Assembly (NCBI GenBank): GCA_964641225.1 | Contig: CAZXKC010000004.1 | Location: forward strand, 29,026-93,025 | Reading direction: 5' to 3' | From: an uncultured Candidatus Saccharibacteria bacterium | GTDB lineage: Bacteria; Patescibacteriota; Minisyncoccia; UBA6257; 1-14-0-10-44-23 | DNA: 64,000 nt | Shown here: piece by piece, positions 8,021-62,944 of the stretch | Layout: each line of letters begins with the position of its first letter | Position numbering within the stretch: position 1 is the first letter of the stretch | The notes under the pieces: generated by a model | Databases searched by the model: none | What the model was told of the DNA's origin: nothing | What the model saw: only the letters and a program-made list of their open reading frames with translations | Program-made: the position numbers and the translations under genes

Positions 8021-8124
8021 ACAGATATAGTACAAAAAAATGCCCATTTGGGCAAGAGAAGTCTCCTTCCGAGCGGCACAACAAGGGTCGCGCCGCTCGG
8101 GGAAATGGTTGCTGTTGTTGAGGT

Positions 8125-9582
8125 TCAGACGTGCAGTTCGGCGGTGCCGGAAAGCACGTCACAGTACTTCATCAGTGCGGGATCCACATAGGTGGCGAGG
8201 AACTGATCCACCTGCCGGGGAGCGCACCCGATGAAGACAGCGGGATCAGTGAGCAAGCGCATGCCACCACTGACTGCCATCTCGGCGAAGTAGGGATCCT
8301 CGCAGAGCCGATCCAGCAGGTCGTTGGCGCCGTCACCTTCCTTCACGCGCTTGCCGGCTTCCTGCGAATGAACCCGGATCTTCTCGTGGCAGACCTGGCG
8401 ATCCGCCCCGTACCGCTCCACCATCTCCATGATCACCTGTTCGGTGGCCAGGAACGGCAGTTCGGCTCGCAGGTTCCGCTCGATGACTTTGGGGTAGACC
8501 ACTGTCCCCTCGAAGACGTTCTGCATGATGATCAGAATGGCGTCGATCGACAGGAAAGCCTCCGGCAAGTAGATCCGGCGACCCGCGCTGTCGTCGAGCG
8601 TGCGCTCGAAGAACTGAGTCGCCTGCGTCATGAACGCATCGAGAGGCAGGATCATGGCGTGGCGCGAGAGCGAATCGGCTCGCTCGGACCGCATCGGGTT
8701 TCGCTTGTAAGCCATTGCGCTGGAGCCGATCTGGCCCTTCTCGAACGGCTCCTCGATCTCCTTGAGCATCTGGAGAACGCGCAGGTCGAGACAGATCTTA
8801 TGGACGCTGGCGGCCAGCCCGCCGAGCGCCGAGAGGACCATGGCGTCGATCTTGCGCGGGTAGGTCTGCCCGGGCACCATGAACCGCTCCGAGAAACTGA
8901 AGGCGGTCGCGACCAGGTAGTCGAGCCGCTCCACCTTTGCCTCGTCCCCCTTGAACAGCTTGAGGAACGAGTCCTGGGTGCCAGTGGCACCCTTGGCGCC
9001 GAGGAAGAAGATCTTGGGGATCAACTCCTCGATCGCCTGCAGATCCAGCAGCAGGTCCTGAATCCACATTGCAGCCCGCTTGCCGACAGTAGTCGGCTGG
9101 GCCGGCTGCAGATGCGTCCTGCCCAACGTCGGCAGTTCACGGTACTGCAGAGCGAACTTCCGCATCCGGTCGATCACTCGAGCGAGCGAAACGCAGGTCA
9201 TGCGCAGCGCGTCACGCAGGATCACCAGGTCGGCGTTGTCGGTCACATAGCAACTGGTGGCACCGAGGTGGATGATCGGCTTGGCCAGCGGACAGATCGC
9301 GCCGAAGGTCTCTACGTGCGCCATCACGTCGTGCCGCTTCTGTCGCTCGAAGGCAGCGGCGGCCGTGTAGTCGATGTCACGCAGATGGGACTCCATCTCG
9401 GCGAGCTGCGCGCTGGTGATCGAGAGCCCGAGCTTTTGCTCGGCGCGTGCGAGCTCCAGCCAGAGCTTGCGCCAGAGATAGAACTTGTTGTCGTCGCCAA
9501 ACAGCTTCTGCATGGCATCCGACGAGTAGCGGCTGACGAGCGGATTTCGCCACCGTTCGGTGGGACTTTCGGTTGCAGTCAC
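8125..9582 (-). CDS. purB: Adenylosuccinate lyase
   Basis: Fumarate-lyase signature GSSAMAYKRNPMRSE and an N-terminal region typical of PurB. Local GC is about 64% against a background of about 45%. Confidence 0.85.
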   Translation of the reverse strand: MTATESPTERWRNPLVSRYSSDAMQKLFGDDNKFYLWRKLWLELARAEQKLGLSITSAQLAEMESHLRDIDYTAAAAFERQKRHDVMAHVETFGAICPLAKPIIHLGATSCYVTDNADLVILRDALRMTCVSLARVIDRMRKFALQYRELPTLGRTHLQPAQPTTVGKRAAMWIQDLLLDLQAIEELIPKIFFLGAKGATGTQDSFLKLFKGDEAKVERLDYLVATAFSFSERFMVPGQTYPRKIDAMVLSALGGLAASVHKICLDLRVLQMLKEIEEPFEKGQIGSSAMAYKRNPMRSERADSLSRHAMILPLDAFMTQATQFFERTLDDSAGRRIYLPEAFLSIDAILIIMQNVFEGTVVYPKVIERNLRAELPFLATEQVIMEMVERYGADRQVCHEKIRVHSQEAGKRVKEGDGANDLLDRLCEDPYFAEMAVSGGMRLLTDPAVFIGCAPRQVDQFLATYVDPALMKYCDVLSGTAELHV

Positions 9583-9663
9583 GTAGCACTCCTTGAGGGG
9601 TTGTTACGCTCCTGCACACGCAGTCGCTCTTCCCCGCACCCACCCTACCAAAATATTCTGCTC

Positions 9664-10449
9664 TTAAGCAACTAATGTATAAAAATTTGAGAACAGCATT
9701 GCCACCACAATTGGCCCTGTTCCACCGGGCGTGGGAGTGATGTGGCCTGCAACGCGCGAGGCGGATTTAAAATCAACGTCGCCCGACAGCGTATCACTCT
9801 CGTCGCGGCCATATCCGTAATCAATTACAACAGCACCTTTTTTGAGATGATCGCCGTTAATGAGGCGCGGTACACCAGTACCGGTAATCACGAGGTCGGC
9901 GTTACGAACAATTTCCGGCTTATACCCGCCCTTGTTCATAATGGTGACGTGTTTAACTTTGCCCATGAGCCAATCTGCAATTGGTCGGCCGATGAGAAGT
10001 CCTGAGCCAACCACCACCACCTCCTTATCGGCCACATCAAAGGCGACTTCTTTTAAAATTCGCTTGAGCGCACCAGCGGCCGGGGCCAAAATTTTGCTGG
10101 TCTCGCCGTTTAACACATCAACATCTTTGTCGATACCAATCTCATTGAGCACCGCAATGCGGTCGTACTTGACCGGAAGCGGCAACTGAATAATGACTGC
10201 ACCGACGTCAGGATTGGTATAAATTTCATGAACTTTTTTCTGTAACTCAACCTGCGCGAGCGTGTCTGCAAAACGATATAAATGAAATTTGACCCCAAGC
10301 GAGCGAGCCGCCATCTCTTTTTGTTTAAGAAAACTTAATGAGGCCGCATCATCGCCCACTAAAATTGCCGCGAACTCCTTTTCGGGAACAAGTTGCTTTG
10401 CAAGTTCCTTTAAAATCTTCTCCGCTATTTTTGCACCGTCAATAATCAT
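9664..10449 (-). CDS. folD: Bifunctional methylene-THF dehydrogenase / methenyl-THF cyclohydrolase
   Basis: IIDGAKIA..., VVVGSGLLIGRPIA, PTPGGTGPIVVAML. Confidence 0.85.
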   Translation of the reverse strand: MIIDGAKIAEKILKELAKQLVPEKEFAAILVGDDAASLSFLKQKEMAARSLGVKFHLYRFADTLAQVELQKKVHEIYTNPDVGAVIIQLPLPVKYDRIAVLNEIGIDKDVDVLNGETSKILAPAAGALKRILKEVAFDVADKEVVVVGSGLLIGRPIADWLMGKVKHVTIMNKGGYKPEIVRNADLVITGTGVPRLINGDHLKKGAVVIDYGYGRDESDTLSGDVDFKSASRVAGHITPTPGGTGPIVVAMLFSNFYTLVA

Positions 10450-10485
10450 AGTTATTTACCTATTCGCGCGAATTAGAGAATAGGA

Positions 10486-11760
10486 TTAGTACGGAAGTGG
10501 AAACTTTTTACAGAGCGCAAGCACCTCTTTGCGAACCTTAACCGGCGACTCTTTTAAATCAATCAACCTATGAATCCAACCGGCAAGCATTTTCATTTCT
10601 TTTTCTTTCATACCGCGGCTGGTAATCAGCGGCGTACCCATGCGCACCCCAGAGGGCCGAAACGGCTTGTCGTCGCCCGGGACGGAATTGCGATTGGCAA
10701 TAATTCCAGCTTTTTCAAGCAGCTGCTCCCCTTCTGAGCCGGTAATCCCCTTATTTTTCATATTCAGAAGCAGCAAATGATTTTGCGTCCCACCGGAGAC
10801 AATCTCAAAACCAAAGCGCATAAGTTCATCTGCAAGCACCTTCGCATTTTTCACGATCTGCTGCCCGTACTTCTTAAATGCCGGTTTTTGCATAAACTCA
10901 AACATGAGCGCAATTGCCGCCGTCTGGTTGTTGTGTGGCCCCCCTTGAATACCCGGGATAATTGCTTTGTTAATCGCCATCGCAATCTGCTGGCCTTTAG
11001 AAAAAATGACAGCGCCGCGCGGTCCGCGCATGGTCTTATGCGTTGTTGCCATCACGACATCAGCATACGGAAACGGACTTGGGTGTGTTCCGGCGGCAAT
11101 CAAACCGGCAATGTGGCTAACGTCAGCGACGTGATATGCGCCAACTTTTTTAGCAATTTCACCGATACGTTTGAAGTCGATCAGATGAGAATAGGCCGTT
11201 GCGCCGGAATAGATCATTTTCGGTTTGTGCTCGTTTGCCAGTTTTTCAATCTGTGCGTAATCAAGCAAGCCTGTTTTTTCATTGAGCTCATACTGTACCG
11301 AATTATAAAATGTTCCGGAAAAATTCAATTTAAAGCCGTGGGTTAAATGACCGCCTGCGGCCAGCGCCATACCGAGCACGGTGTCGCCCGGCTTCATTAG
11401 CGCAAAATAAATTGCCATATTTGCAGCTGAACCTGAAGCAGCTTGGACATTAAGATACCAGGTGTTTGCGTCAGCTGGATTAATATCTTCAACTTTCGTC
11501 GGTAATTCTATGGATGGCTTTCCTTTTAATTTAAAAGCCTTAAAACCCTCAACTTGAGCCATGGTTTCAATCTCATCGCAAAATTCGTTGCCGGGGTAAT
11601 AGCGACGCCCCGGATAGCCCTCTGAGTATTTATTAACAAGCGGCGTGCCAAGGACACGCAAAATTTCCGGATCAACAATATTTTCGGATGGTATTAAACC
11701 AATCGTTTCATTTTGGCGCTTTGTTTCCGCGTGTATAAATTTCCAAAGTTTTTGTGACAT
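10486..11760 (-). CDS. glyA: Serine hydroxymethyltransferase
   Basis: LIPSENIVDPEIL..., PLP-binding TTHKTMRGPRGA. Confidence 0.9.
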   Translation of the reverse strand: MSQKLWKFIHAETKRQNETIGLIPSENIVDPEILRVLGTPLVNKYSEGYPGRRYYPGNEFCDEIETMAQVEGFKAFKLKGKPSIELPTKVEDINPADANTWYLNVQAASGSAANMAIYFALMKPGDTVLGMALAAGGHLTHGFKLNFSGTFYNSVQYELNEKTGLLDYAQIEKLANEHKPKMIYSGATAYSHLIDFKRIGEIAKKVGAYHVADVSHIAGLIAAGTHPSPFPYADVVMATTHKTMRGPRGAVIFSKGQQIAMAINKAIIPGIQGGPHNNQTAAIALMFEFMQKPAFKKYGQQIVKNAKVLADELMRFGFEIVSGGTQNHLLLLNMKNKGITGSEGEQLLEKAGIIANRNSVPGDDKPFRPSGVRMGTPLITSRGMKEKEMKMLAGWIHRLIDLKESPVKVRKEVLALCKKFPLPY

Positions 11761-12746: not shown

Positions 12747-12762
12747 ATACGGGTATTCTATA

Positions 12763-12904
12763 CTACTGAGCTATCGCGAGCCGCCTTTGGCGGCGGTTAC
12801 AAAAGCGGCGGTGGCCGCAACCCTGAGCGACAAGGCCCGGGTACCTCGGTCCTCTTTTATTCTATAACAAGAGCCGAGGGGCCGCCACACGCGCATGTAG
12901 TCGA
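12763..12904 (-). repeat. Copy B of the roughly 140-nt tRNA-associated structured element, 5' of tRNA-Ile
   Basis: Shares its core with copies A and C. The first hairpin shows compensatory changes (CUCUU...AAGAGG here versus CUCGGCUC...GAGCGCCGAG in A and C). Confidence 0.45.
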
Positions 12905-14973: not shown

Positions 14974-17133
14974 ATGAAACTTGTTATTGTCGAGTCGCCG
15001 ACAAAGGCGAACACCATAAGTAAATTTATCGGAAAAGAATATCGAGTTGAGTCATCCTTTGGGCACGTCCGCGACTTGCCCAAAAGTCGTTTTGGTATCG
15101 ACCTCGAAAAAAACTTTGAACCGACCTATATCATCCCCGTAAAAGCCAAGACCCGGGTTACTGAACTGCGCAAACTTGCTAGCAAGGCAAAGGAGATTAT
15201 TCTCGCAAGCGATGAAGACCGCGAAGGAGAGGCCATTGCCTGGCACCTGCGTCAGGTATTAGAAGGAAAGGGTTCGAAGACTAAACGCGACTCAGTCTCT
15301 GTAATCGAAGGCAAGCCGATTAACCGCATCGTCTTTCATGAAATTACTGAAACTGCGATTAAGAATGCGCTGACTCACCCGCGCGAACTCGACCAAAAGA
15401 TGGTTGACGCTCAACAGGCTCGACGTATTTTAGACCGACTTGTGGGTTATAAGCTTTCACCGTTCCTCTGGAAAAAAATTGCAAAGGGACTTTCTGCCGG
15501 TCGCGTACAATCCGTTGCGCTGCGGTTAATTGTTGATCGCGAAAACGAAATTCGCGCCTTCAAACCCGAAGAGTACTGGAGCATCTCGGCAAAACTCAAA
15601 ACTCAAAACTCAAAACTCAAAACTGAAGATGGGTTCGAAGCGGATTTAATTAAAGTTGCCGGTAAGGTACTCGATAAGTTTGATATTAAAACCAAGGCGG
15701 ATGCGGAAAAGATTGCCGCAGACCTAAAGAACGCGAGCTATTCAGTCACGAGCGTAAAAAAGACAGAGACCAAAAAGAATCCCTCCGGGCCTTTTACGAC
15801 CAGTACCCTGCAGCAAACTGCCAGCACCCGCCTTGGTTATTCTGCCAAGAAGACCATGACGCTGGCGCAGATTTTGTATGAAAACGGACACATCACGTAC
15901 ATGCGTACCGACTCTTTGAATCTTTCAAAAGAGTCACAAGCTGCCGCGGCAGAATATTTGCAAACAACCTTTGGCGAAAAATACGTTTCAGTAAAGTCAT
16001 ATCACACTAAATCAAAAGGTGCGCAGGAGGCGCACGAGGCTGTCCGCCCGACGAAACTGACTCATCCGGATGAGCTGCCGGTCTCCGACGAGGCTGTGCG
16101 CAAACTCTATCGTTTGATCTGGCAGCGCTTTTTGGCGTCACAAATGCCGCACGCTGTTTTTGATGCAACTCAAGTAGACGTTGAGACTGCCGATAAAAAA
16201 TACACGCTGCGCGCAAATGGCAATACGATGAAGTTTGATGGATTCCTTAAAGTCTATCCTCAATCATTTGAAGAAAAACAGTTGCCGGTACTCGCAGAGG
16301 CCGACAAACTAAAATTAGAGAAAGTTACGCCGGATCAACACTTTACGGAGCCCCCGGGTCGCTACTCTGAAGCCAAGCTGATTAAAACCCTTGAAGAGTT
16401 TGGTATTGGCCGTCCTTCAACCTACGTTTCGATCATTTCCGTGATTCAGGCGCGTAATTATGTGCGCAAAGAGGGCGGACGCTTTCATCCAACCGAAATC
16501 GGGGAAATGGTCAGTAAGCTTTTGACGACCCACTTCCCGCAGGTAGTCGATATTGGTTTTACGGCAAAAATTGAAAGCGAATTAGACGAGGTCGCCGAGG
16601 GCACGATTGTGTGGCAGGCCCCACTGCGCGAATTTTACGATCCGTTTGCGAAATTACTTGAAGAAAAATACGCCAGCGTTGAAAAAGAAAACCCTGACGA
16701 GGCTACCGACGAGGTCTGCGCCTGCACCGGCAAGAGTAGTTCGCCTAACTCAAAATGCGAACACGAGGGGTCCTGTGGCAAGCCGATGATTATCAAATTC
16801 GGACGCTTTGGAAAGTTCCTCGCCTGCTCCGGTTTCCCGGAGTGTAAAAATGCAAAGAACGTCAATCGCGCCGAGGCGTTGACGATTAATATGAAGTGCC
16901 CGAAGTGTCTTGAAACCCCGGAACGAAAAGATAACCCTGGTGACGTTGTCGTTAAACAAACCCGCAAGGGCCGTAAACGAATGTTCTGGGGCTGCAGCAG
17001 ATATCCAGACTGTACGTTCGCCACTTGGAACGATCCTACCAAGACACCGGAACAAATAGCGGAAGAGAAAGCAAAAGCCAAGGCGAAAAAGTTTGAAGAG
17101 AAGGATGAAAAGGTAGTTGAGGAGGAGTCGTAA
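14974..17133 (+). CDS. topA: DNA topoisomerase I
   Basis: TOPRIM N-terminus MKLVIVESPTKANTISKFIG...SFGHVRDLP, C-terminal C4 zinc ribbons, and a Lys/Glu-rich tail. The start was moved to the ATG at 14974. Confidence 0.9.
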   Translation: MKLVIVESPTKANTISKFIGKEYRVESSFGHVRDLPKSRFGIDLEKNFEPTYIIPVKAKTRVTELRKLASKAKEIILASDEDREGEAIAWHLRQVLEGKGSKTKRDSVSVIEGKPINRIVFHEITETAIKNALTHPRELDQKMVDAQQARRILDRLVGYKLSPFLWKKIAKGLSAGRVQSVALRLIVDRENEIRAFKPEEYWSISAKLKTQNSKLKTEDGFEADLIKVAGKVLDKFDIKTKADAEKIAADLKNASYSVTSVKKTETKKNPSGPFTTSTLQQTASTRLGYSAKKTMTLAQILYENGHITYMRTDSLNLSKESQAAAAEYLQTTFGEKYVSVKSYHTKSKGAQEAHEAVRPTKLTHPDELPVSDEAVRKLYRLIWQRFLASQMPHAVFDATQVDVETADKKYTLRANGNTMKFDGFLKVYPQSFEEKQLPVLAEADKLKLEKVTPDQHFTEPPGRYSEAKLIKTLEEFGIGRPSTYVSIISVIQARNYVRKEGGRFHPTEIGEMVSKLLTTHFPQVVDIGFTAKIESELDEVAEGTIVWQAPLREFYDPFAKLLEEKYASVEKENPDEATDEVCACTGKSSSPNSKCEHEGSCGKPMIIKFGRFGKFLACSGFPECKNAKNVNRAEALTINMKCPKCLETPERKDNPGDVVVKQTRKGRKRMFWGCSRYPDCTFATWNDPTKTPEQIAEEKAKAKAKKFEEKDEKVVEEES

Positions 17134-17213
17134 AAAGCAAAGAGGCTCCGGGTCGCTTGCGCAAACCGGAGCCTGAGACTCCAAGGGGCAGAGGGTCGGG
17201 ATAACCGAGCAAC

Positions 17214-17819
17214 CTAAGCCCCAAGTTTCGTTACTTGACCTCGACGAGCCACCGCAAGAGGTAGCTCCAGCCGCGGCCAGCCTGGCGGAAGAACTCGACG
17301 CCGTCGCTTCCCACGTACGGGAAGAAGACGCGGTCGGCCGGACCGACCCACGAGGCATCGGCGACTCCGACCCAGCTTCCGTCGGTCTTCGGGTAGGCCT
17401 TTCTTAAAGGCCTTGCGCCACTGGCCCTGCGGGATCTTCCCGTGCCTGGCCAGCTCCTCCTTCACCGCCTCGAAACTCGGCTGGTAGCCGATCGAGACCA
17501 GCTTGAACTTCCTGGTCTGCGGCTCGGCGATCTCCTGGCCAGTGAAGCGCCAGGTGCCCGTGAAGCCTTCGTCCGTGATCATCTGGAGTCCGGTGAAAGG
17601 CTCCGTGATGGAAAGTTCGAAGACCTCGCCGTCCTGCGGATAGGTCCGCAGTTCGGGGATCTTCCGCACCGCCTCCTCGATGGCGTCGGCGCAGCGGTTG
17701 ATGGCGAAGGCGTCGATGCAGACGCCGGTCGCGGCCAGTCGCTCACGCTTGATGCCGCGCTTGACCAGCTCCTTCGCGATCGCCGTACCGAGCGCCAAAT
17801 CCACTTCGTTGCCTCTCAT
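17214..17819 (-). pseudogene. Frameshifted high-GC gene of unknown function
   Basis: GGAGGA RBS then ATG at 17819 (MRGNEVD...). About 62% GC. The last 50 or so codons continue in another frame as ...TDGSWVGVADASWVGPADRVFFPYVGSDGVEFFRQAGRGWSYLLRWLVEVK*. The ORF-track tail (Arg-rich) looks like out-of-frame translation. Confidence 0.4.
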
Positions 17820-17890
17820 CGGAATCCTCCAAGCTATTCTTGAAAACACCTACGCGGCGCATTCTTGAACAGCGGTAAGGCGGCTTTTGT

Positions 17891-17941
17891 AGCCGCACAA
17901 ATTGGGTCGTTTTTGGCCTAAAAATAGACCAATTTGTGCGG
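17891..17941. promoter_or_regulatory. Perfect 16-bp inverted repeat (TAGCCGCACAAATTGG ... CCAATTTGTGCGGCTA) upstream of the high-GC pseudogene
   Basis: Seen directly in the sequence. A stem-loop with a loop of about 20 nt. Confidence 0.3.
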
Positions 17942-18432
17942 CTAATTCAGCACAAGTAGCTTTAAAAGAACTTTATGCAGTATACATCCTTTTACTAAAT
18001 TTGTCAAAGGTCTAAAAATGTCGATTTTAAGGCTTTTTTGTAATTATCTAAAACCAGAAAGCCGCCGAAGGCGCGACTCCTGGTCAACCTTACGGCGGCT
18101 AGTATTCCTGCTTCTTTGAGATTTGCTGCCTCTCGGCAGCAAAATGCCACAGATGCTGTATGGCACAGTCCCAGCAATAGATTGCGCCAATCTGCGCATC
18201 AGGGAATTTCCAGAATTCCAAGACTGCGCCGCACCCGCCCGCACACGAAGCTACTGCCAATACGACTGGCACCTGCGAGTATCGCGGCCTCCTAGACTTC
18301 TCATTTTTCGGAAAAGTCCACGAAGCATTTGCAAGACCTGTTTGCATGGCCCCCCCCTTCTACTTATAAAACTAGAAAGCTGACTCTCTAAAGAGTTTGC
18401 CAAAAAACAAATCAACTGTAAACACGTAGAAC

Positions 18433-19380: not shown

Positions 19381-19409
19381 TTGAAATAAGCCAACAGAAA
19401 CGGTAGAAT
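19381..19409 (+). promoter_or_regulatory. Sigma-70-like promoter for tRNA-Leu(CAA)
   Basis: TTGAAA, 17 nt, TAGAAT, ending about 8 nt before the tRNA 5' end. Confidence 0.45.
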
Positions 19410-19417
19410 GCTTTTAT

Positions 19418-19503
19418 GCTCGGGTGGCGGAATGGCAGACGCTGACGACTCAAAATCGTCCGATCGCAAGGTCATGTGGGTTCGACTCCCACCCCGAGCA
19501 CCA
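19418..19503 (+). tRNA. tRNA-Leu (anticodon CAA), class II, with CCA encoded
   Basis: Acceptor GCTCGGG/CCCGAGC, anticodon loop CTCAAAA, long variable arm, T-loop GGTTCGACTCC, 3' CCA. Confidence 0.8.
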
Positions 19504-19647
19504 AACAAAAATGGCGGGCTTTACGCCGCCATTAACACTACGGGGGCCGACGATCTTCGTCTGGCCCCCTCCCCGCTGCGTTACGCTTATTTGCGTCACA
19601 ACTGGTGACTTAAGCGCTTCGCTTCCCACCTACTACCCTGCTAGAAC

Positions 19648-20481
19648 CTAGAGCGAATTGATCATCTCCGATTCGACCTGAGCGCCCTTGATCAGGCCGT
19701 TTTCGATTGCTGCTTCAATACATTCCTGAGACTCCGATCCGGCGTAGTAGAGCATTCCAAGCTCGACGCCCTCCTGAGCCTTCTTGTTGTGGTCGGGTTC
19801 GCTGAGATTGTGCGCCCCGACGTAAGCATCGCCGGTAACAGATGCATATCCTGCAAACGGCATCTTCACCTCATGAACCTGTGACCGCAGGTCGTTGTCT
19901 TCATTGATGAGCACCTTCCACCACTTCGGAAAGGCACCGGCTGCAGCATGTTCGCCGCCCTGATGTGCGGCGATCGCCGAGAGCATCTCCAGACCGGTGA
20001 GTTGCTTGCCGACACCGTAGGCCTCACGGATTCCCGCGTGTGCCTTGAGGTCTGCACTGGTCAACGCAATCCTGTTGAGTGTTGTCGGATCCACCTTGAG
20101 CACCTTGCACCATGAGCGCAGCAGGACCTGTGCCAGAGTGCGATGCGACGGACTCTTACCGCCACTGCCACCGAAATCGTCATTGGTTGCAGCATTGAGT
20201 CGCACCACGATCTCAGAGCTACGATCACGCGTCCAGATGCAGGCGTCGTTCTTGTCCATGAACAAATTCGACGCTGCGATCTGACCCATCAGATGCAGCG
20301 GGCAGTGCATCGCCACGCGACTGTACTCGATGTAGCGAAGCATGAACTCGAGTACCGGCTCCCACGAAGCCTCGCTCCGGCCCAGGCGCACAGCACGCTT
20401 CCACGCACGTACGAACGCGTCACTTGCGTCGTAGCGAGCCAGAAGACTATCAAGATGAGCACGAAAACGATCGGTCATCAT
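19648..20481 (-). CDS. Hypothetical protein, with GC (about 56%) above the local background
   Basis: Start reassigned to the ATGATG preceded by a GGAAGGAGA RBS. No recognisable domain. Confidence 0.4.
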   Translation of the reverse strand: MMTDRFRAHLDSLLARYDASDAFVRAWKRAVRLGRSEASWEPVLEFMLRYIEYSRVAMHCPLHLMGQIAASNLFMDKNDACIWTRDRSSEIVVRLNAATNDDFGGSGGKSPSHRTLAQVLLRSWCKVLKVDPTTLNRIALTSADLKAHAGIREAYGVGKQLTGLEMLSAIAAHQGGEHAAAGAFPKWWKVLINEDNDLRSQVHEVKMPFAGYASVTGDAYVGAHNLSEPDHNKKAQEGVELGMLYYAGSESQECIEAAIENGLIKGAQVESEMINSL

Positions 20482-20656
20482 CAGCTGTCTCCTTCCGTTT
20501 TCACGGTTCCCAAGACTATTAGCATAGCCCCCTTCCACAAGGAGCTGGACTATAAGACGTTCAGCTCTCAAAAACCATTACAACTCATCCACACCTTGCA
20601 CCGCCACAAGCTTTTTGGTAAAATACGCTTAGCGACGTAATCGCTGAGCACCTCCT

Positions 20657-21112: not shown

Positions 21113-21197
21113 GGAGGGGTGGCAGAGTGGTCTAATGCACCGCACTTGAAATGCGGCGTGCCGCAAGGCACCGTGAGTTCGAATCTCACCTCCTCCG
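21113..21197 (+). tRNA. tRNA-Ser (anticodon TGA), class II
   Basis: Acceptor GGAGGGG/CTCCTCC, anticodon loop CTTGAAA, long variable arm, T-loop GTTCGAATC. Confidence 0.75.
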
Positions 21198-22790
21198 CAA
21201 GTTGAGATTCTTGTCATACCGAGCCTCCAAAGACCCCGTTCCGACGCGGGTTCTTGGAGGTTCGAATGAAGACTTGGTCTCTGGAACAGCAGCCGTGTAT
21301 TTTCTGATAAGAAACGCCGTGTTGCCGTTATCCCACTTCACTTTTTTGTCTAAGAGGCGGAGGTTCGAATCCTGCCCGAGGGCAGCGACAAATTCCCGTC
21401 GTTTTTCTGGCGTAGCCTTATCCCAGCGTTTAGCGACCTCAGTAGCGAAGACAAATCCTTCTTCGGCTTTATTAACCCAGTTCACCACCTCTGCGTTAAC
21501 CTCGTTAGCAACTTGATTAAGCCTAGCCTGGTCTTTAAGAAGCTCCTTTTTACGCTCCGCAAACTGCTTAGCATCAATCTCCTCATCAGCACGCATATCA
21601 ATGAGACGTTTGAGCCTCTGAGCACAGGCATCGTCGGCCCTACGCTGGGCGGTCAAGATTGCTTCCCGCTCACGGAATTGGTTCTCGTTTTCCTTTCTTA
21701 GTTTTGCCAAAGCCCAATCCCGGAAACGCGGAGAGATATCCATACCCTCAACAACCTCCTCGATCTGTTTTTCTAGAGCCTTCTCTTCCACGAGAGGCTG
21801 CGCACAGCGAGGTTTCAGCTGTTTAGTACAGTGATAATAGATATAGGTATGGACATTGCCGTTTTTCTGTCGTTTTATACGTTCCTCGGCAGTTATAGCT
21901 GCGCCACACGCCCCGCACCGAAGTATGCCGACATATTTAAACCAGCGTCGTTCCTGGGGCCGAGGCATACCTTTGCGGCCCAACAATTTTTGGACGCGAT
22001 CAAACTCTTCGAGGGTAACCATTGGCTTGTGATTTCCTTTATATAGCTTCCTGTTTTCTTCATTTCCATATTCAAACCACCCGTAGTAGAAGGGATTGTT
22101 AAAGAGATGGTAAATAGCTGCCCGAGAGATTGGATTACCACCACCGTTTCTTCGTAGAGGTGTTCGTAGGCCCCAATCCTTCGTAGCGATGTCGAGTACC
22201 TGCGGAGCGGTATAAGCACCAGTCAGCATGAGGTCCCATGCCTTGCGAACTAACGGGAAGATTTCCTCATCAACGAGAATCGTATTTGAACCCTTATCGC
22301 GCAGCCTGCTATTTTTATAGCCGATCGGAGCTGGCCCAGGACGCCAACCCATTCCGACCTTAGTATTCTGTCCGCGTTTTACGTTGGTGCTGAGGTCATC
22401 TACATATTTCTTGGCAATACCGAAGTCCAAGCTCATCATGAACTTGTCATCACCGTTGTTTCGGAAAACTTTCTCAGGTGTACGGATTTCCGTAATGAGG
22501 CCGCGATCCATAAACCAAGAAATTTTTCCACCATCCAACGCATTGCGTGCCAAACGGTCGAGCTTCCAAACTAGAAGTGCGCAACTTTTTTCTTTTTCGA
22601 GATAAGTGAGCATCTCTTCAAAGTGCGGGCGGCCCGGAGACTTGGCCGACTTGCTCTCCTTGAAGGTTGCACAAATCGTGAGCTTCTCGCGCCGCGCATA
22701 ACTCTTAAGTACCTCCTCTTGGGAATCTATCGAGAGAGCCTGCTTATCGTCTGATTCGGAACTTTTGCGGCAGTAGACAACGTACTTCAT
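21186..22790 (-). CDS. Large serine recombinase (integrase)
   Basis: N-terminal resolvase domain with catalytic Ser (YCRKSSESDD), a recombinase domain, a Cys4 zinc ribbon (CGACG...CTKQLKPRC) and a coiled-coil. The ORF 3' end overlaps the tRNA-Ser 3' end, so the true stop may lie earlier. Confidence 0.8.
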   Translation of the reverse strand: MKYVVYCRKSSESDDKQALSIDSQEEVLKSYARREKLTICATFKESKSAKSPGRPHFEEMLTYLEKEKSCALLVWKLDRLARNALDGGKISWFMDRGLITEIRTPEKVFRNNGDDKFMMSLDFGIAKKYVDDLSTNVKRGQNTKVGMGWRPGPAPIGYKNSRLRDKGSNTILVDEEIFPLVRKAWDLMLTGAYTAPQVLDIATKDWGLRTPLRRNGGGNPISRAAIYHLFNNPFYYGWFEYGNEENRKLYKGNHKPMVTLEEFDRVQKLLGRKGMPRPQERRWFKYVGILRCGACGAAITAEERIKRQKNGNVHTYIYYHCTKQLKPRCAQPLVEEKALEKQIEEVVEGMDISPRFRDWALAKLRKENENQFREREAILTAQRRADDACAQRLKRLIDMRADEEIDAKQFAERKKELLKDQARLNQVANEVNAEVVNWVNKAEEGFVFATEVAKRWDKATPEKRREFVAALGQDSNLRLLDKKVKWDNGNTAFLIRKYTAAVPETKSSFEPPRTRVGTGSLEARYDKNLNLRRR

Positions 22791-22972
22791 AGGGAATATT
22801 TTAATTTAACCATGCGAATTATATTTGAGACAATATCCGGTTTTCATATAGCTTCTGAGGGTCAGCGACCTACATCTTCTACATCACCCCAGACTCTCCG
22901 CGCAAACAAAGAAGCGCTGGGGTGTAGCCGCTCATAAACTAATCTACAACGTGCAGGCCTCTATATACACGC

Positions 22973-24409: not shown

Positions 24410-24421
24410 AATGATGGTTAA

Positions 24422-24598
24422 TTAATTATTTTCATCAGCGCCAAGCCCGTCGACCTCGGGCATTGGATCGATAGCAAATTTTATGAGAGCAAGAAGCCTG
24501 CACGCTTCTTTGGCGGCGTGTTCATCAGTAAGCTCTACGCCTGTCTCGGCGAGATATAGCTGCTTAAAATTTTGGATTTCCTCTGTCGATAACTGCAT
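24422..24598 (-). CDS. Small ORF (58 aa) not in the ORF track, possibly an island regulator or excisionase-like protein
   Basis: Hand translation gives MQLSTEEIQNFKQLYLAETGVELTDEHAAKEACRLLALIKFAIDPMPEVDGLGADENN. It ends 13 nt before the start of the 478-aa gene. Confidence 0.2.
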   Translation of the reverse strand: MQLSTEEIQNFKQLYLAETGVELTDEHAAKEACRLLALIKFAIDPMPEVDGLGADENN

Positions 24599-24657
24599 TC
24601 ACTGACCTTATCGTTCAGACCTATATGCCTGACATCCGTTTCTTGTATGCCTGCAAA

Positions 24658-24682
24658 CTAAAAAAGCCGCTTATTCGCGGCA
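24658..24682 (-). terminator. Rho-independent terminator after the 237-aa minus-strand gene
   Basis: GCCGCGAATAAGCGGC hairpin followed by TTTTTT on the minus strand. Confidence 0.5.
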
Positions 24683-24728
24683 CATTTATTGAGGTTATTA
24701 ACAGGACAAGAGGCAGACTAAAAGAATC

Positions 24729-25442: not shown

Positions 25443-25589
25443 TCTTTATGGACGAGTTGACAGGGTTATGTCAATAGACTCCATATCTTACTTCCAAGCT
25501 AACTCAAGAGGTGATAAAATGTGCTTACAATTTAATACGCCGCAAGGCAGAGCCTAAACCGCCAAGAAATTGACGGCATGGCTCCGAAG

Positions 25590-25700: not shown

Positions 25701-25718
25701 AAATAAAATTAATAAACT

Positions 25719-26156: not shown

Positions 26157-26170
26157 AAACTAATCACTAT

Positions 26171-26362: not shown

Positions 26363-26366
26363 TATC

Positions 26367-26615: not shown

Positions 26616-26624
26616 AGGCCCGTC

Positions 26625-43376: not shown

Positions 43377-43377
43377 A

Positions 43378-44688: not shown

Positions 44689-44693
44689 ATGCT

Positions 44694-49296: not shown

Positions 49297-49334
49297 AAAG
49301 AAAGAGGCCCCGCACGGTGAGGTGCGTGACCTCT
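49290..49334 (-). terminator. Hairpin terminator between the convergent T4CP-like gene and the 198-aa gene
   Basis: AGAGGCCCCGCAC-ggtgag-GTGCGTGACCTCT hairpin, with a U-rich tract on the minus strand. Confidence 0.4.
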
Positions 49335-49355
49335 CCACTGCAGGGCCGAACTACT

Positions 49356-49952
49356 CTACTGAACGACTGCCGGAGCCGTGACGTCCTGCTTCTTGCCATC
49401 CCAGCTATCGAGATGACCGTGAGAGCTGAACACGAACACGCCTCGTTGCTCGGACTCTACGTCCCAACGCTTGCACTGCCACACCTTCACTTTGACGTAG
49501 TCCCAGTTGCCCTTCACGCCAGTGATACTGGCGATTGCACGGATTGTTATCCAGCGACAGGCCCCTCCGCTGGGCTGCTTCTCGTTCAACTTCACATGCA
49601 CGACGAAGAAGACGATCCGGGACTGAAAGTTGTCCTCGGGTGATGCGGGCCGACCGTAGACGCCACGCTTGTAGGCGTATTTCTCCACGGCCTCATGTCG
49701 AAACCCTCTGGCATGCGCGATGTCGACTACTGCTTCGGCGAGCCTATCGGGCTGAGGAAGAACTCGAATCTCTCGCTCTTCCGTCTTGGGCGGGACTCGA
49801 AATTCCCATTCCTCCCAAGCCGCGACCGGCAGCTTCAGACCCTTCTCGACGGCGGCTCGCACCGCTTCTTGAGCAAAGGTCATCCACTTGGAAATCTGAA
49901 GGACCGTCAGACCATCCCGCTCACGAGCAAACCTATTACGGTGACGACGCAT
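49356..49952 (-). CDS. Hypothetical protein in a high-GC (about 58%) patch
   Basis: ORF only. Basic N-terminus. Confidence 0.35.
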   Translation of the reverse strand: MRRHRNRFARERDGLTVLQISKWMTFAQEAVRAAVEKGLKLPVAAWEEWEFRVPPKTEEREIRVLPQPDRLAEAVVDIAHARGFRHEAVEKYAYKRGVYGRPASPEDNFQSRIVFFVVHVKLNEKQPSGGACRWITIRAIASITGVKGNWDYVKVKVWQCKRWDVESEQRGVFVFSSHGHLDSWDGKKQDVTAPAVVQ

Positions 49953-50115
49953 GGGAACCTCCTTTTAGGTGTAACCTGCATATGCAGGCGCCGCCACTAT
50001 GGCAGCTTTCCCATAGAATATATTATAGCACACATTATTGTATTTTGTCAATAGATACGTTAAAACGCCTCATTTTAGGAGGTTTTTAGAATTTAGCCGT
50101 TAAAAATAACGGCAA

Positions 50116-50895
50116 CTATTTGTTAAACTCATCTCGCGGCTTTGACGCTCGTACAATCTCCATCGCCTCTTTCGCAGAATCAACGATAGTGAAAATCTGC
50201 ATGTCTACCTGATCAATTGCTTTGAATTTTGCAAACACGTCGTTTTCAATCCAACGAATAAGCGGATCCCAATATTCTTTACCTACCAAAATCACAGGTA
50301 TGTGAGTTGCAATTTTTTTGGTTTGAATAAGGGTTATAAGCTCAAAAAATTCATCAAGAGTACCAAATCCGCCGGGGAAATATACGTACGCTTGCGCGGA
50401 ATAACTTAACATCAACTTACGTGTAAAAAAGTAGTGAAACCCGTGACCACGATTTACGTAGGGGTTAATACGTTGCTCTACAGGCAGCTGGATATTCAGT
50501 CCAATTGAATTGCCCCTTGCCTCATGCGCCCCTTGGTTAGCCGCCTGCATAATACCTGGACCGCCGCCAGTGACCACCGCAAACCCTGCTGTGGCAAGTA
50601 AATTACCGAGCTCCTGCGCCTCTGCATACCACCGATCAGTGGCCGGAAAACGCGCAGAACCAAAGACAGTAACTGATTTACGATATGAGGCAATAAACTC
50701 AAATCCTTCGACAAATTCCGCCATGATACGAAAAATGCGCCAGTGCATAGACGCGCGAAAGTCAGATGGCTCTTCGAAAACAGGAAGATGCGACGCAGGA
50801 AGATTTAAAGATCCGATCTTGTGAGGCTCGTGCCCCTTGTGTTCCATTTTTTTACGAAAAAGCATATGAGTTAGTATATCAGAGAAAGAATTCAA
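50116..50895 (-). CDS. LOG-family protein (cytokinin riboside 5'-monophosphate phosphoribohydrolase-like)
   Basis: VTVFGSARF..., GGGPGIMQAANQGA, PGGFGTLDE motifs. Confidence 0.75.
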   Translation of the reverse strand: MNSFSDILTHMLFRKKMEHKGHEPHKIGSLNLPASHLPVFEEPSDFRASMHWRIFRIMAEFVEGFEFIASYRKSVTVFGSARFPATDRWYAEAQELGNLLATAGFAVVTGGGPGIMQAANQGAHEARGNSIGLNIQLPVEQRINPYVNRGHGFHYFFTRKLMLSYSAQAYVYFPGGFGTLDEFFELITLIQTKKIATHIPVILVGKEYWDPLIRWIENDVFAKFKAIDQVDMQIFTIVDSAKEAMEIVRASKPRDEFNK

Positions 50896-50898
50896 AGA

Positions 50899-51321
50899 CT
50901 ACAATTTTATTCGATAAAAATTCGTTTCTTTCTTTTCAAATCCCATTTTCTCGTACAAAGCAACTGCCGCAGTACGCTCAGGGCGACTTGTGCAATGGAT
51001 TTCAGTAACTCCTTTTTCTTTAGCTTTTTCTAGCATCGCAGCCATCAATAATTTACTTAATCCCTGCCCGCGGTGACTTTCGCTGACGAATACATCATCA
51101 AAATGAGCATCTGTTCGAGAAGCTGTCGGCAAATAGCCGACCGTCGTCATCCCGACAATATGGTCATTGTCGCGGATCACAAATAAATCGCTTGAACTCT
51201 TCAGAAATTTTTTGAAATCAGCGACATCTAATACCGCACGGTCGGGCGAAAACTGCCGGTACAGCTCCTTAATATCCTCAAAATCCGCCTTAGAAAACTT
51301 TTTTAAAACCTGCGCTTTCAT
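50899..51321 (-). CDS. GNAT-family N-acetyltransferase
   Basis: Acetyl-CoA-binding motif VSESHRGQGLSKLLMAAM. Confidence 0.7.
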   Translation of the reverse strand: MKAQVLKKFSKADFEDIKELYRQFSPDRAVLDVADFKKFLKSSSDLFVIRDNDHIVGMTTVGYLPTASRTDAHFDDVFVSESHRGQGLSKLLMAAMLEKAKEKGVTEIHCTSRPERTAAVALYEKMGFEKKETNFYRIKL

Positions 51322-56701: not shown

Positions 56702-56840
56702 GCCCCTGTAGTTCAATGGATGGCGGCCCCTCGGCTCTTATTATAAAATAGGAGCGCCGAGGTACCAGGGCCTTGTCGCTCAAGGTTGCGGCCACCGCCG
56801 CATTCGTAACCGCCTCCACTTTGTTTCGGCTCGCGATAGA
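56702..56840 (+). repeat. Copy C of the roughly 140-nt tRNA-associated structured element, 5' of tRNA-Arg
   Basis: Same core as copies A and B. Preceded by GCCCCTGTAGTTCAATGGAT, which resembles the 5' 20 nt of the downstream tRNA-Arg. Confidence 0.45.
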
Positions 56841-56858
56841 GCAGCTCCGTCCTCAAAC

Positions 56859-56931: not shown

Positions 56932-57023
56932 CACCTGTCAATATTGCATTTCTTGCTAGCGGTGCTACCGTTTATTTGTGTTGGCCATGGTGGCCAGCGC
57001 AGGACCCAAGGAGGATGTCTCAC

Positions 57024-57722
57024 ATGGAAACGCATCTGCGAATCCACGAGGCCTTCTGCCTCGTGTCCTCGCTACTCTCGCTGGTTCTCGAACCAGCCGT
57101 GAAAGAAGGCTGCGGCATCACGATCTGGCACGGTCGCCCGATCTACGACCCACACCTACAGAAACCCCTCAACGAAACGACCGAACTGCTGATGGACCTG
57201 CTGGCGGAAGAGGCGCTCAAGGAAGGGCTGCCCTCTACCCCGGAAGACGCTATCGCAGCAGTGGTGACCTACGACCGCGGTGGCATCCGCCGCACTCTGG
57301 CGGAGACGCTGGCCCGGAAAATCGGGGGTCTCCAGAGGTTCCCCTGCGAACCGTTCATCGTCGCTCACAATAAGGGGGCCGGTGGTGTCCGTGGACGGCT
57401 CGTCCTGGACCGGGAAGGACTGCGGGATCTTCGGAGGCGAAAAGCGAAGGTCTACTTCCTCACCGATCTTCTGGAAACCGAGAGTTACCTGATCCGCATG
57501 GCCAAGACCGCCCGGCAGCCGCGCCATGGTCTCCGCATCGTTCGGTTCAGTGCCGTAGTCAAACGTGATCGAGGCATCCGCAGAGTCATCCTAGATCGCG
57601 TCGGAGAAGAACTCCCTCTCGTGTACTTCCTGGACTGCCAACTGGACCCTCGACAGTCCGCCGAGGACGGCGACGCAGTGCAACACGAGATCGACAGGGC
57701 ATTCGAACCTGCAACCCTGTAG
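57024..57722 (+). CDS. Hypothetical protein in a high-GC (about 62%) patch
   Basis: AAGGAGG RBS before the METHLRIHE start. No recognisable domain. Nucleotidyltransferase- or Abi-like is speculation only. Confidence 0.35.
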   Translation: METHLRIHEAFCLVSSLLSLVLEPAVKEGCGITIWHGRPIYDPHLQKPLNETTELLMDLLAEEALKEGLPSTPEDAIAAVVTYDRGGIRRTLAETLARKIGGLQRFPCEPFIVAHNKGAGGVRGRLVLDREGLRDLRRRKAKVYFLTDLLETESYLIRMAKTARQPRHGLRIVRFSAVVKRDRGIRRVILDRVGEELPLVYFLDCQLDPRQSAEDGDAVQHEIDRAFEPATL

Positions 57723-57782
57723 CCCCAACAACGCTAAGAGAGCCGGCTTCGTGAAGAACGACCGGCTCTCTCCCTTTTAAGA

Positions 57783-58169
57783 TTACTTTTTCTTTTCTAG
57801 CTCCAAGCAAACCGAATTGATACAATAGCGCTTCCCTGTCGTTGCCTTTGGGCCATCGTCAAACACGTGGCCTAAATGAGAATTACAATTGGCGCAGAGC
57901 ACCTCGGTTCGCTCCATCCCATATTTTGAGTCGTGTTCGTATTTAACGGCTCCGGGAAGCGCCTGATCAAAACTTGGCCAACCAGTACCAGAATCAAACT
58001 TTGCATCTGAGGCAAAGAGCTTGTTGCCGCAGACAACGCAGGCAAACATTCCCTCTTCATGGGACGTGGCATATTTGCCACTGAAAGGCACCTCCGTTCC
58101 CTTTTCGCGCAATACCTTGTATTGCTCAGGGGTCAACTTCTTTTTCAGCTCCTCCTCGTTAATCTGCAT
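57783..58169 (-). CDS. msrB: Peptide-methionine (R)-S-oxide reductase
   Basis: Two CxxC pairs and GTGWPSF...HLGHVFDDGP. Confidence 0.85.
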   Translation of the reverse strand: MQINEEELKKKLTPEQYKVLREKGTEVPFSGKYATSHEEGMFACVVCGNKLFASDAKFDSGTGWPSFDQALPGAVKYEHDSKYGMERTEVLCANCNSHLGHVFDDGPKATTGKRYCINSVCLELEKKK

Positions 58170-61800: not shown

Positions 61801-62355
61801 CTATCCCTTCTTGTCGCGAGCGTGCAAGACCGCCATGGCCCCGTTTGCAAGACAAGAAACAGTCGGATAAAAACTATTCGCAAACGTCCAAGAGCCACCA
61901 CCAATCACACTGAGCAAACCACCAAGAGAATACATCAACCACGGCAAAAACTGTTTCCTTTCTGGTTTGCTATAGGCGTCGCGCAGGCTCGGGGCGATAG
62001 CGATAAAATATTTTATAACCACAATCGTTAGCGTTGCCGCAAAAGCACTCACGTAGTACCAAACGCCCAGAGAAATAATTGCTCCTACCAAAACAGTTGT
62101 TTCGAATGAACGCCAACGCCACTCGCCTCCTTTGAGAATAAATAAAACCACGACAATGTTCCCAATTTCAAAAGCACCCGCGAGGAATGCGCTCGCGTTG
62201 TTCGCCAAAAGTGCAAAAAATAAAACGGCATCTACAAAGGACCATATTAACCAGGTCGCGATGTTAAGCCTTATGTTGCCACGCCAGATATCGAGAAGCA
62301 AAGGAATATAGGCAAGAAAAGCAATCGCGGCACCTGCCCAAACGATGTATTGCAT
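61801..62355 (-). CDS. Polytopic membrane protein (native low-GC paralog of the 31394-31969 gene)
   Basis: Shared motifs NIATWLIWSF... and ...KPERKQFLPWLMYS, with the same TM layout. Confidence 0.45.
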   Translation of the reverse strand: MQYIVWAGAAIAFLAYIPLLLDIWRGNIRLNIATWLIWSFVDAVLFFALLANNASAFLAGAFEIGNIVVVLFILKGGEWRWRSFETTVLVGAIISLGVWYYVSAFAATLTIVVIKYFIAIAPSLRDAYSKPERKQFLPWLMYSLGGLLSVIGGGSWTFANSFYPTVSCLANGAMAVLHARDKKG

Positions 62356-62374
62356 ATATCGCTATAATACCATG

Positions 62375-62447
62375 AGCCACCTCCCAGACTTGAACTGGGG
62401 ACCTTCTCTTTACAAAAGAGTTGCTCTACCAGCTGAGCTAAGGTGGC
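62375..62447 (-). tRNA. tRNA-Thr (anticodon TGT)
   Basis: Acceptor GCCACCT/AGGTGGC, anticodon loop TTTGTAA, T-loop AGTTCAAGTC. Confidence 0.7.
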
Positions 62448-62558
62448 GTGCATCTATTTAAGCTTAAAATCAGTAAATTGACAACATTGCCTTCGAGGGT
62501 GGTATTCTAAAGACGGGTACGGATGGGTGGTCAAACGACATGGAAGGAGGTGATCAAA

Positions 62559-62798
62559 ATGTCGACGACCAACCCCAGTGACCCGAAGCATCGGGTAGCC
62601 AAGCTCGTTACGGAAGGACTCGTAACGCGCGTAGCGGCGATCTGCTATCTGCACAGTAAGGGCCTTGCCCTGCTGCCAGACGGCTTTAGGCATATCAGCG
62701 ACAGCGAGTATGCCGATCACATCGCCGACGTCGAGGAGGTGCTCAAGAAGGAGCCCGAACCGACGCCCGTAGCAAGCGAGAACGGGAGCAAGAACTGA
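62559..62798 (+). CDS. Small acidic hypothetical protein in a high-GC patch
   Basis: GGAAGGAGG RBS with 7-nt spacing before the ATG at 62559. A TTGACA...TATTCT promoter-like pair lies upstream. Confidence 0.3.
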   Translation: MSTTNPSDPKHRVAKLVTEGLVTRVAAICYLHSKGLALLPDGFRHISDSEYADHIADVEEVLKKEPEPTPVASENGSKN

Positions 62799-62944
62799 TG
62801 GGAGGATGGGATGACCCGTGCGCCTGCAGCACCGTCCGGCCGTCGCCGGCGGCTAGTGCCTCACTCATCCGCGATGCGGGTCCGAGCGAGGCACTTCAAT
62901 TTTCATAACAAAAAATACGCGCATGATAGGCGCTTTTTATTTTG

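Follow-up and report, generated by a model that had tools for sequence, protein, structure and literature searches.

Short GC-rich gene units in a patescibacterial genome: probable horizontal acquisition of accessory genes

Results

Eight GC-rich patches carry eleven genes of atypical composition

The stretch of DNA analysed here, called the window, comprises 64,000 nt of an uncultured bacterium (assembly GCA_964641225.1, contig CAZXKC010000004.1, positions 29,026–93,025 of the forward strand) and was taken from a metagenome-assembled NCBI contig of 97,843 bp. It holds 12 tRNAs and is interrupted by short GC-rich patches, which are the subject of this study. GC content was 47.3% for the whole window and 45.7% for the background. 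When patches were called from a sliding 200-nt GC profile as segments of more than 500 nt with at least 57% GC, eight were obtained, at 7818–9665, 17088–17923, 19386–20555, 31018–32671, 42066–43015, 49197–50019, 56941–57790, and 62485–63021. Their mean GC was 56–61% and together they make up 13.5% of the window. An initial annotation made from the letters of the window had described such a mosaic, and the eight segments agree with the positions that it gave. We numbered the patches P1–P8 in window order; they contain eleven protein-coding genes in all, ten of them intact and one frameshifted.

To describe the coding signal we used GC at first, second, and third codon positions (GC1, GC2, and GC3). 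GC3 was 0.66–0.83 in the eleven patch genes, compared with 0.461 ± 0.059 and a maximum of 0.58 in 54 native genes. The two distributions are disjoint, with z-scores of 3.4–6.3 for the patch genes (Mann-Whitney p = 1e-7). All patch genes had the order GC2 < GC1 <= GC3, as expected for genuine coding sequence of a GC-rich genome, and the compositional shift reaches beyond GC3 to the first and second codon positions and to dinucleotides. The long antisense open reading frames (ORFs) at 8131–9675 and 17442–17843 had been dismissed in the initial annotation; they are indeed mirror artefacts of real genes, with GC1 of 0.82–0.85. In line with that annotation, which had noted good Shine-Dalgarno sites and promoter-like elements in several patches, most patch genes have a strong Shine-Dalgarno site (AAGGAG or GGAGG) in front of them, and P2, P5, P6, and P8 also a consensus sigma-70 promoter. 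The possibility that the patches are non-coding RNA was rejected, given codon-position periodicity in every patch and no Rfam match even at E <= 1.

The host and its sister genomes

Native genes of the window are typical of the candidate phyla radiation (CPR) and include DUF5671 and DUF5684 genes, a pilin with an N-methylation motif, and a type IV secretion system (T4SS) coupling protein. In a TopA search with one genome per species the best matches were three sister genomes, which we call L004 (89% amino acid identity), L005 (74%), and L006 (65%). These were followed at 55–60% by genomes of the Patescibacteria/Parcubacteria group, for example Giovannonibacteria and Liptonbacteria. The closest TopA matches carry automatic 'Saccharibacteria' Third Party Annotation (TPA) labels. 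The host is a Patescibacteria (CPR) bacterium. That it is Saccharibacteria-like, which the initial annotation had raised as a speculation, is not demonstrated, because the nearest TopA relatives mix Saccharibacteria-labelled and Parcubacteria-group genomes.

The order rluD, tRNA-Val, folD-glyA, tRNA-Ile, topA, parB, tRNA-Leu(CAA), a 133-aa gene, and tRNA-Ser(TGA) is conserved in L004, L005, and L006, and both purB of P1 and p3 of P3 are missing from it. Downstream of tRNA-Ser, L004 passes directly to homologues of window 39947–46229. The sister genomes have unrelated high-GC genes of their own in the same or neighbouring slots, at 15013–15444, 6087–7487, and 1356–1856 in L006 and at 17955–18386 in L004. 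Among them is a patatin-like ORF of 466 aa between glyA and tRNA-Ile in L006. A further related genome, L003 (GCA_023255625.1), has the same mosaic as the window, with patches of 57–60% GC in a 45% background.

P1 is a purB insert at a site that is empty in relatives

Alignment with the empty site in L004 delimits P1 as an insert of about 1.58 kb (8077–9655, minus strand). It contains the purB coding sequence (8125–9582, minus strand; 485 aa, GC3 0.83), preceded by an AAGGAG Shine-Dalgarno site of its own and followed by a GC-rich hairpin at 8087–8120. The insert lies between the folD stop codon (9664) and a conserved native terminator (8041–8054), upstream of the tRNA-Val leader. In L004 the distance from tRNA-Val to folD is 184 nt and there is no purB; the gene is missing from the syntenic site in four sister genomes.

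The purB product matches both Pfam domains of an adenylosuccinate lyase, Lyase_1 with 83 bits (cut-off 27) and ADSL_C with 62 bits (cut-off 32.7), and the fumarate-lyase signature GSSAMAYKRNP is present in the translation. Residues 9–483 align to human adenylosuccinate lyase (ADSL) structures with 550 bits. A second ADSL structure class, which we take to include the mycobacterial enzyme 4NLE, reached at most 236 bits, and the closest solved structures are of the human/fungal type. In database searches the best match was 62% identical; the matching contigs have large non-CPR gene sets and 55% and 63% GC, and the named top matches are from Planctomycetota and eukaryotes. Judged from its sequence, purB is predicted to encode a full-length adenylosuccinate lyase of the eukaryote/Planctomycetota type (the type of about 477 aa). 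It resembles that family in its full-length Lyase_1 and ADSL_C domains, its signature, and 55–62% identity to bacterial and eukaryotic members. It differs from the family in lying in a CPR genome whose relatives are without it at the site, in its place behind glyA-folD, and in a best match of no more than 62%. As a side observation, purB reads on from glyA-folD upstream of their terminator, which gives a one-carbon/purine string glyA-folD-purB at 8125–11760 on the minus strand.

P2 is decaying and P3 is predicted to encode a di-iron enzyme

P2 (17150–17849, minus strand), delimited by six-frame translation and GC3 phase, contains the frameshifted orphan p2. The first frame, 17819–17214, encodes 201 aa, and the gene continues in another phase to about 17150. 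The frameshift lies at about 17414 in an extra G in AAAGG, and the GC maximum moves from the third to the first codon position at about 17,400–17,414. An identical 201-aa product was found on contigs from Logan assemblies of two sequencing runs, both of which extend into topA. This phase jump, together with the truncated product assembled from two runs, confirms that one patch gene is frameshifted, as the initial annotation had proposed. The P2 promoter, TTGACA-17-TATACT, is at 18007–17979 and a 25-nt palindrome is at 17890–17944. In the sister genomes the topA-parB slot varies: L005 has only 135 nt there, L006 and L007 carry a RelA/SpoT gene, and the slot in L004 contains DNA that is unrelated.

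P3 (19648–20481, minus strand) lies between the terminator of tRNA-Leu(CAA) and the promoter of the next native gene. Its single gene, p3, is called with 277 aa, the real start being M31. The p3 family consists of 64 distant, uncharacterised homologues with 23–31% identity, and the closest relative among 1.84 billion representatives searched was 28% identical. In the family alignment the columns H113, H173, E177, H224, E228, and H231 are nearly invariant. An AlphaFold model of p3 had a pLDDT of 96.3, and the best Foldseek matches to it were Chlamydia CADD, PolF, BesC, and UndA, with a probability of 1.0. From the predicted fold and the conserved His and Glu columns, p3 appears to be a heme-oxygenase-like di-iron oxidase (HDO) of the CADD/PolF/BesC-like kind. 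Like the members of the HDO family (CADD/CT610, PolF, BesC, and UndA; PF14518), it has the seven-helix fold in its model (TM-score 0.55–0.74) and keeps the His/Glu columns. Unlike them, it is only 11–15% identical to the solved members and stays below the Pfam threshold. p3 itself had no match in Pfam, and three of its homologues reached 16.5–18.9 bits, two with PF14518 (cut-off 28.9) and one with SOUL (cut-off 27).

In L004 the distance from tRNA-Leu to the next gene is 288 nt; p3 is absent, and the terminator is duplicated around a tRNA-like fragment. The same tRNA-Leu(CAA) slot in L006 contains an unrelated ORF of 143 aa with GC3 of 0.79. We also note that p3 lies about 10 kb from purB and that its predicted fold is like that of CADD, the chlamydial para-aminobenzoate (pABA) synthase. 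The acquired genes purB and p3 may share a folate/purine theme.

P4 is the GC-rich part of an island at tRNA-Ser

An island of about 18.7 kb (21186–39900) is integrated at the 3' end of tRNA-Ser(TGA). Its large serine recombinase (21186–22790; Pfam Resolvase, Recombinase, and Zn_ribbon_recom) has a stop codon that overlaps the 3' end of tRNA-Ser. The cargo includes a DEAD/ResIII helicase, a 1199-aa helicase (AAA_11/AAA_12) that has an MTES_1575 nuclease domain, a protein with an REase fold, two LOOT RNAs (Rfam RF03000, 83–89 bits; 25551–25670 and 33031–33154, both on the plus strand), and P4. A similar terminator follows each LOOT RNA, and the second of these RNAs overlaps the start of a mechanically called ORF at 33027–33878. 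L004 is without the island and has tRNA-like scraps after its own tRNA-Ser. The backbone of the island has native-like GC and only P4 is GC-rich.

The P4 operon (30877–32577, plus strand) begins with a leader (30877–31018) made up of a promoter, an invariant 45-nt block, and a terminator, and this leader is conserved with L003. It is followed on the same strand by p4a (31122–31391; 89 aa, Cys-rich), p4b (31394–31969; a 191-aa membrane protein), p4c (31956–32519; 187 aa), and a terminator hairpin (32531–32577). Comparison with L003 gave 80% identity for the leader, 87% nucleotide and 88% amino acid identity for p4b, and a terminator identical at 47 of 47 positions. Third codon positions account for 49 of the 70 differences between p4b and its counterpart. 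The outer context of P4 differs between the two genomes. A native paralogue of p4b (184 aa, GC 0.47) is encoded at 61801–62355 on the minus strand; in BLASTP the two are 27% identical over 180 aa (E = 2.8e-11), so that P4 does provide a second copy of a native membrane protein, as had been suggested.

Several other observations concern this operon. The genes that flank p4b are non-homologous in the two genomes (31122–31391 and 31956–32519 in the window; 9509–9997 and 10567–10962 in L003), and in both the upstream gene is rich in Cys. A conserved gene set between two variable ones recalls the layout of polymorphic toxin/immunity or peptide loci. The leader of L003 is at 8928–9078, and the 45-nt block is identical in both genomes (ACGCCGCATATATAACCACCCGGGTGCGGTAA...). 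The 3' strand of the first leader hairpin could pair with the terminator stem, in an attenuator- or riboswitch-like layout. A riboswitch was not established from these two sequences, with fold z-scores of –0.4 and –1.5.

P5 to P8 are short units, most of them orphans

P5 (42049–42690, plus strand) consists of a native promoter, two genes, and a terminator hairpin. The first gene, p5a (42127–42315), encodes a 62-aa helix-turn-helix (HTH) protein with a weak match to sigma-factor region 4, and the second, p5b (42316–42627), a 103-aa Cys/His-rich protein. The divergent promoter that drives them (42049–42078) is conserved in L004, together with the start of the divergent DUF5671 gene and both flanking genes. 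In that genome the slot between DUF5671 and the ABC transporter gene contains a different Cys/His-rich ORF with 58.7% GC, and in L006 it contains a membrane protein gene with 41% GC.

P6 (49356–50051, minus strand) lies between the T4SS coupling-protein gene and a LOG/SLOG gene. It has an orphan gene, p6 (49356–49952; 198 aa), with a terminator and its own promoter (TTGACA-17-TATAAT at about 50051–50022), and the 90% cluster of p6 has one member. P8 (62559–62798, plus strand) is a 79-aa orphan between tRNA-Thr(TGT) and tRNA-Tyr with GC3 of 0.73, a GGAGG Shine-Dalgarno site, and a TTGACA-17-TATTCT promoter.

The orphan of P7, p7 (57024–57722, plus strand; 232 aa), lies 92 nt 3' of tRNA-Arg(CCT) and adjoins msrB. 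Among 5.8 billion clusters it has a single relative, P0194, which is 63–66% identical and aligns end to end. P0194 is on a 4.2-kb metagenome contig with the order p7-msrB-(M24 peptidase)-DUF5684-ABC as in the window, and because this order is kept, the p7 unit predates a species split. An AlphaFold model of p7 from the two-sequence alignment had a pLDDT of only 33, and a profile searched against the PDB gave no match. The idea that its VYFLTDLLETES motif marks a phosphoribosyltransferase was a guess and found no support. The remaining orphans had no match in Pfam, PHROG, NCBIfam, or PADLOC beyond the weak one of p5a.

The sister loci bear on the possibility that GC was raised in place, the patches being fast-evolving native loci that were altered by GC-biased gene conversion at recombination hot spots or by local hypermutation. 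The P5 slot might be read in this way, since two sister species have high-GC sequence there that does not align, preceded in both by one and the same conserved promoter. The GC elevation is also limited almost exactly to coding sequence and terminator, with AT-rich promoters at its flanks. Moreover, orthologues can differ in GC, as the fraction of Gly, Ala, Arg, and Pro (GARP) is 0.25 in P0194 and 0.32 in p7. Against this, purB is a conserved enzyme gene that four sisters are missing at the syntenic site and that has its nearest homologues in GC-rich, non-CPR bacteria; p3 is missing at the L004 site and replaced by an unrelated gene in L006; and the shift extends to codon positions 1 and 2 and to dinucleotides. 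We know of no bacterial process that lifts GC by 15 points in kilobase-sized blocks. We therefore consider a change in place very unlikely.

tRNA genes are not significantly enriched next to the patches

It had been proposed that six of the eight patches adjoin tRNA genes or a tRNA-associated repeat. We found four of eight (P1, P3, P7, and P8) in a tRNA-adjacent slot, and a fifth, P4, is 10 kb deep in the tRNA-Ser island. Of the 70 native slots 23 adjoin a tRNA anyway, so this is not a significant enrichment (P of at least 4 of 8 = 0.24). A recombinase gene at a tRNA was seen only in the tRNA-Ser island.

The tRNA-associated repeat is about 125 nt long and occurs upstream of tRNA-Val (7880–8015, minus strand), tRNA-Ile (12760–12895, minus strand), and tRNA-Arg (56715–56845, plus strand). 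The copies are 87–89% identical, have about 66% GC, and lie 19–43 nt upstream of the tRNA in the same orientation. Folding predictions give them a closing stem and three hairpins (–55 to –63 kcal/mol, z –2.0 to –3.1), and they terminate in a sequence like the 5' half of a tRNA (TCGCGATAGCTCAGT). Neither Rfam nor any of the sister loci retrieved contains the repeat. Some of the GC elevation at the P1 edge comes from the copy at 7880–8015.

Independent assemblies span borders of four patches

The window comes from a metagenome assembly, and abrupt steps in GC are a classic warning sign of chimeric joins with reads of a co-occurring GC-rich organism. Logan contigs that were assembled independently from runs SRR14271332 and SRR14271336 were 100% identical to the window. 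One contig (41169–43233) crosses both borders of P5 and another (49083–50995) both borders of P6, with contigs from two runs; a third, L160, is identical to window 30922–34118 and covers P4 and the flank to its right. Contigs of both runs carry the P2-topA junction. Contaminating joins, which the initial annotation had named as the outcome that would overturn its idea, are thereby ruled out for P2, P4, P5, and P6. In addition, the patches are complete genes set precisely between native signals and the related genome L003, on a 602-kb contig, has the same mosaic. With these results, an artefact of assembly or binning is so improbable that we give it almost no weight.

Patches of two related genomes share a dinucleotide signature

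We compared dinucleotide composition with the Karlin distance (delta*). The distance of the pooled patches from the native background was 163–190, and native segments of the same lengths gave a null of 33 ± 11. Single patches were 59–96 from the other patches and 140–233 from the background, with the exception of P2 (149 versus 168); P8 is too short for a significant test. When the patches of the window were compared with those of L003 the distance was 28–29, also after removal of the shared gene. As a comparison, halves of the background within a genome differed by 26, as did the backgrounds of the two genomes. Distances from the window patches to two unrelated high-GC contigs were 100–125. 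Thus, the two related genomes hold the same two compositional compartments.

Another high-GC sequence was noted during these comparisons. L096 (Ga0209541_10003936) is a 15-kb metagenome contig with 60% GC that carries a homologue, 60% identical, of the native ABC transporter of the window. From this contig, GC-rich relatives of the organism may exist. A metagenome scan with the same native ABC transporter, made to find sister loci for P6–P8, gave relatives of at most 65% identity and no synteny.

Discussion

The data make it likely that this lineage gained the eleven accessory genes by horizontal transfer. They would have come in units of one to three genes, and their source, or few sources, would have had about 60% GC. 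That genes were acquired laterally and repeatedly from a high-GC donor had been proposed in the initial annotation, and it is supported by composition, by dinucleotides, by absence or different cargo in the sister genomes, and by the non-CPR affinity of purB. There is a precedent in this group, as genomes of Patescibacteria are reported to contain hundreds of genomic islands and transferred genes that make up as much as 13% of genome length (PMC12455944).

In the mechanism that we propose, each unit would have arrived as a whole, and each now sits in a permissive intergenic slot. For purB this is the space after a stop codon and before a native terminator; for p3, p7, and p8 it is directly 3' of a tRNA gene; for p5, behind a native promoter that was already present; and p4 is cargo of the serine-recombinase island. 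Since the units have kept their own Shine-Dalgarno site and GC-rich terminator hairpin, the patch genes appear, by these signals, to be expressible as units. Gain would be continuing and the cargo turning over, with purB and p3 as recent arrivals, p7 as an older and shared one, and p2 in decay. P4 would represent shuffling of modules, and the slots of P3 and P5 would be reused by different high-GC cargo in the sisters. Foreign DNA would most likely have been taken up through the competence/type IV pilus system that CPR bacteria typically have. Illegitimate or homology-facilitated recombination and deletional trimming would then have led to neat gene units. Competence and pili have been proposed as an uptake route in Patescibacteria (PMC12455944). 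The shared signature may stem from a single lineage that donated repeatedly, such as the host cell of the organism.

Several results weigh against horizontal transfer as set out here. The confinement of elevated GC to coding sequence and terminator means that post-insertion trimming or promoter capture is needed as an explanation. No recombinase was found among the flanking genes scanned for P1–P3 and P5–P8, a repeat search and a border k-mer search gave no flanking direct or att repeats for any patch, and the patch borders have no 8-9-mer or hairpin in common. Comparison with sister loci covered P1–P5 and, for P7, the contig of one relative, and is incomplete to that extent. No donor was found: among 5.8 billion clusters p7 had one relative, from a sister CPR bacterium, the nearest p3 homologue among 1.84 billion representatives was 28% identical, and the best purB match was 62% identical. 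Scans of IMG/VR with p3, p4b, p6, and p7 gave no relatives, and none of the orphans matched GenBank phages or plasmids in tblastn. If a co-sampled host had passed on genes recently, near-identical homologues would be expected; very large databases gave no close homologue, which disfavours recent transfer from an organism that has been sampled. Finally, correlations of tetranucleotide z-scores between the patches of the window and those of L003 (0.45–0.50) were close to those with unrelated high-GC contigs (0.38–0.44) and, with such short sequences, too noisy to confirm a common origin. The idea of one donor lineage is for this reason a lead and not a finding.

These searches also bear on where the genes came from. 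Seven of the ten patch proteins other than purB were searched widely and had no close homologue outside related CPR genomes, and the orphans searched had no homologue in any high-GC organism. One explanation is that the patches are cargo of a GC-rich mobile pool of the lineage itself, made up of CPR phages, plasmids, and integrative elements and exchanged among related Patescibacteria. P4 fits this well, given its place on a serine-recombinase island and a module that recurs in one related CPR genome with a conserved leader and an identical terminator. The only relative of p7 is in another CPR bacterium, short orphans make up the cargo other than purB, a feature typical of mobilomes, and L096, with its homologue of the native ABC transporter, is possibly from a GC-rich relative. 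Transfers detected into Patescibacteria are, moreover, mostly from other Patescibacteria (PMC12455944). Against it, p3, p4b, p6, and p7 had no hits in IMG/VR and the orphans none in GenBank phages or plasmids, and the closest relatives of purB belong to bacterial contigs from outside the CPR. Within the island, GC is native in the backbone and high only in the patch. As a rule, the GC of mobile elements does not exceed that of the host. The dinucleotide signature of L096 also differs from that of the patches (delta* 120–125). On this evidence we regard a mobilome of the lineage's own as an unlikely source, and acquisition from outside high-GC sources remains the reading that we prefer.

Among such sources, an actinobacterial host was the donor raised as a speculation at the outset. 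This found no support, as no patch protein shows actinobacterial affinity and purB is of the eukaryote/Planctomycetota type. We can offer tentatively, and with considerable doubt, that the high-GC compartment may reflect sustained gene flow through DNA-uptake pili from a single partner lineage that has yet to be sequenced; the physical host of the epibionts would be the most plausible one. Alternatively, an unrecognised mechanism that is independent of recombinases may capture genes behind native promoters and terminators.

Gene acquisition as we see it in the window has much in common with known systems. As with alien genes and islets of the Lawrence/Ochman type, which are documented for Patescibacteria (PMC12455944), the patches are atypical in GC, codon-position usage, and dinucleotides, are patchy in relatives, carry accessory or orphan cargo, and in some cases adjoin a tRNA. 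One classical island with a recombinase at a tRNA is also present. Unlike such islets, the patches are mostly single genes of 0.3–1.6 kb without a mobility gene, direct repeats, or fragments of donor genes. They are unusually dense (about 10–13% of the window) with no donor found, and their GC exceeds that of the host, in contrast to most alien genes of bacteria, which are AT-richer. The 18.7-kb tRNA-Ser(TGA) element resembles tRNA-targeting integrative islands in having a serine recombinase at the 3' end of the tRNA and in being absent from L004. By contrast, P3, P7, and P8 lie 3' of tRNAs without an integrase or a tRNA-end repeat, and purB is on the 5' side of tRNA-Val, upstream of a native terminator. 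The P5 slot has a likeness to integron cassettes, in that promoter-less or single-gene units are swapped behind a fixed native promoter and the cargo of relatives differs. It is unlike them in that no IntI was found among the flanking genes scanned and no attC-like motif at the borders, and the slots are scattered and do not form an array. In kind this is ordinary horizontal transfer; what stands out is the density of the units, their bias to high GC, their orphan cargo, and their coherence across two genomes.

Hosts and sources of acquired genes are known for only a minority of Patescibacteria, which rely on partner organisms for their nucleotides. The window would present a minimal genome that patches its metabolism, with about a tenth of the stretch made up of recently gained and apparently expressible genes that include a predicted purine-salvage enzyme and a CADD-like di-iron enzyme. 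If there is no single donor lineage, these patches would still be a clean and well-controlled example of ordinary horizontal gene acquisition. If there is one, the signature of the compartment and its genes would be a fingerprint with which the unknown host could be named.

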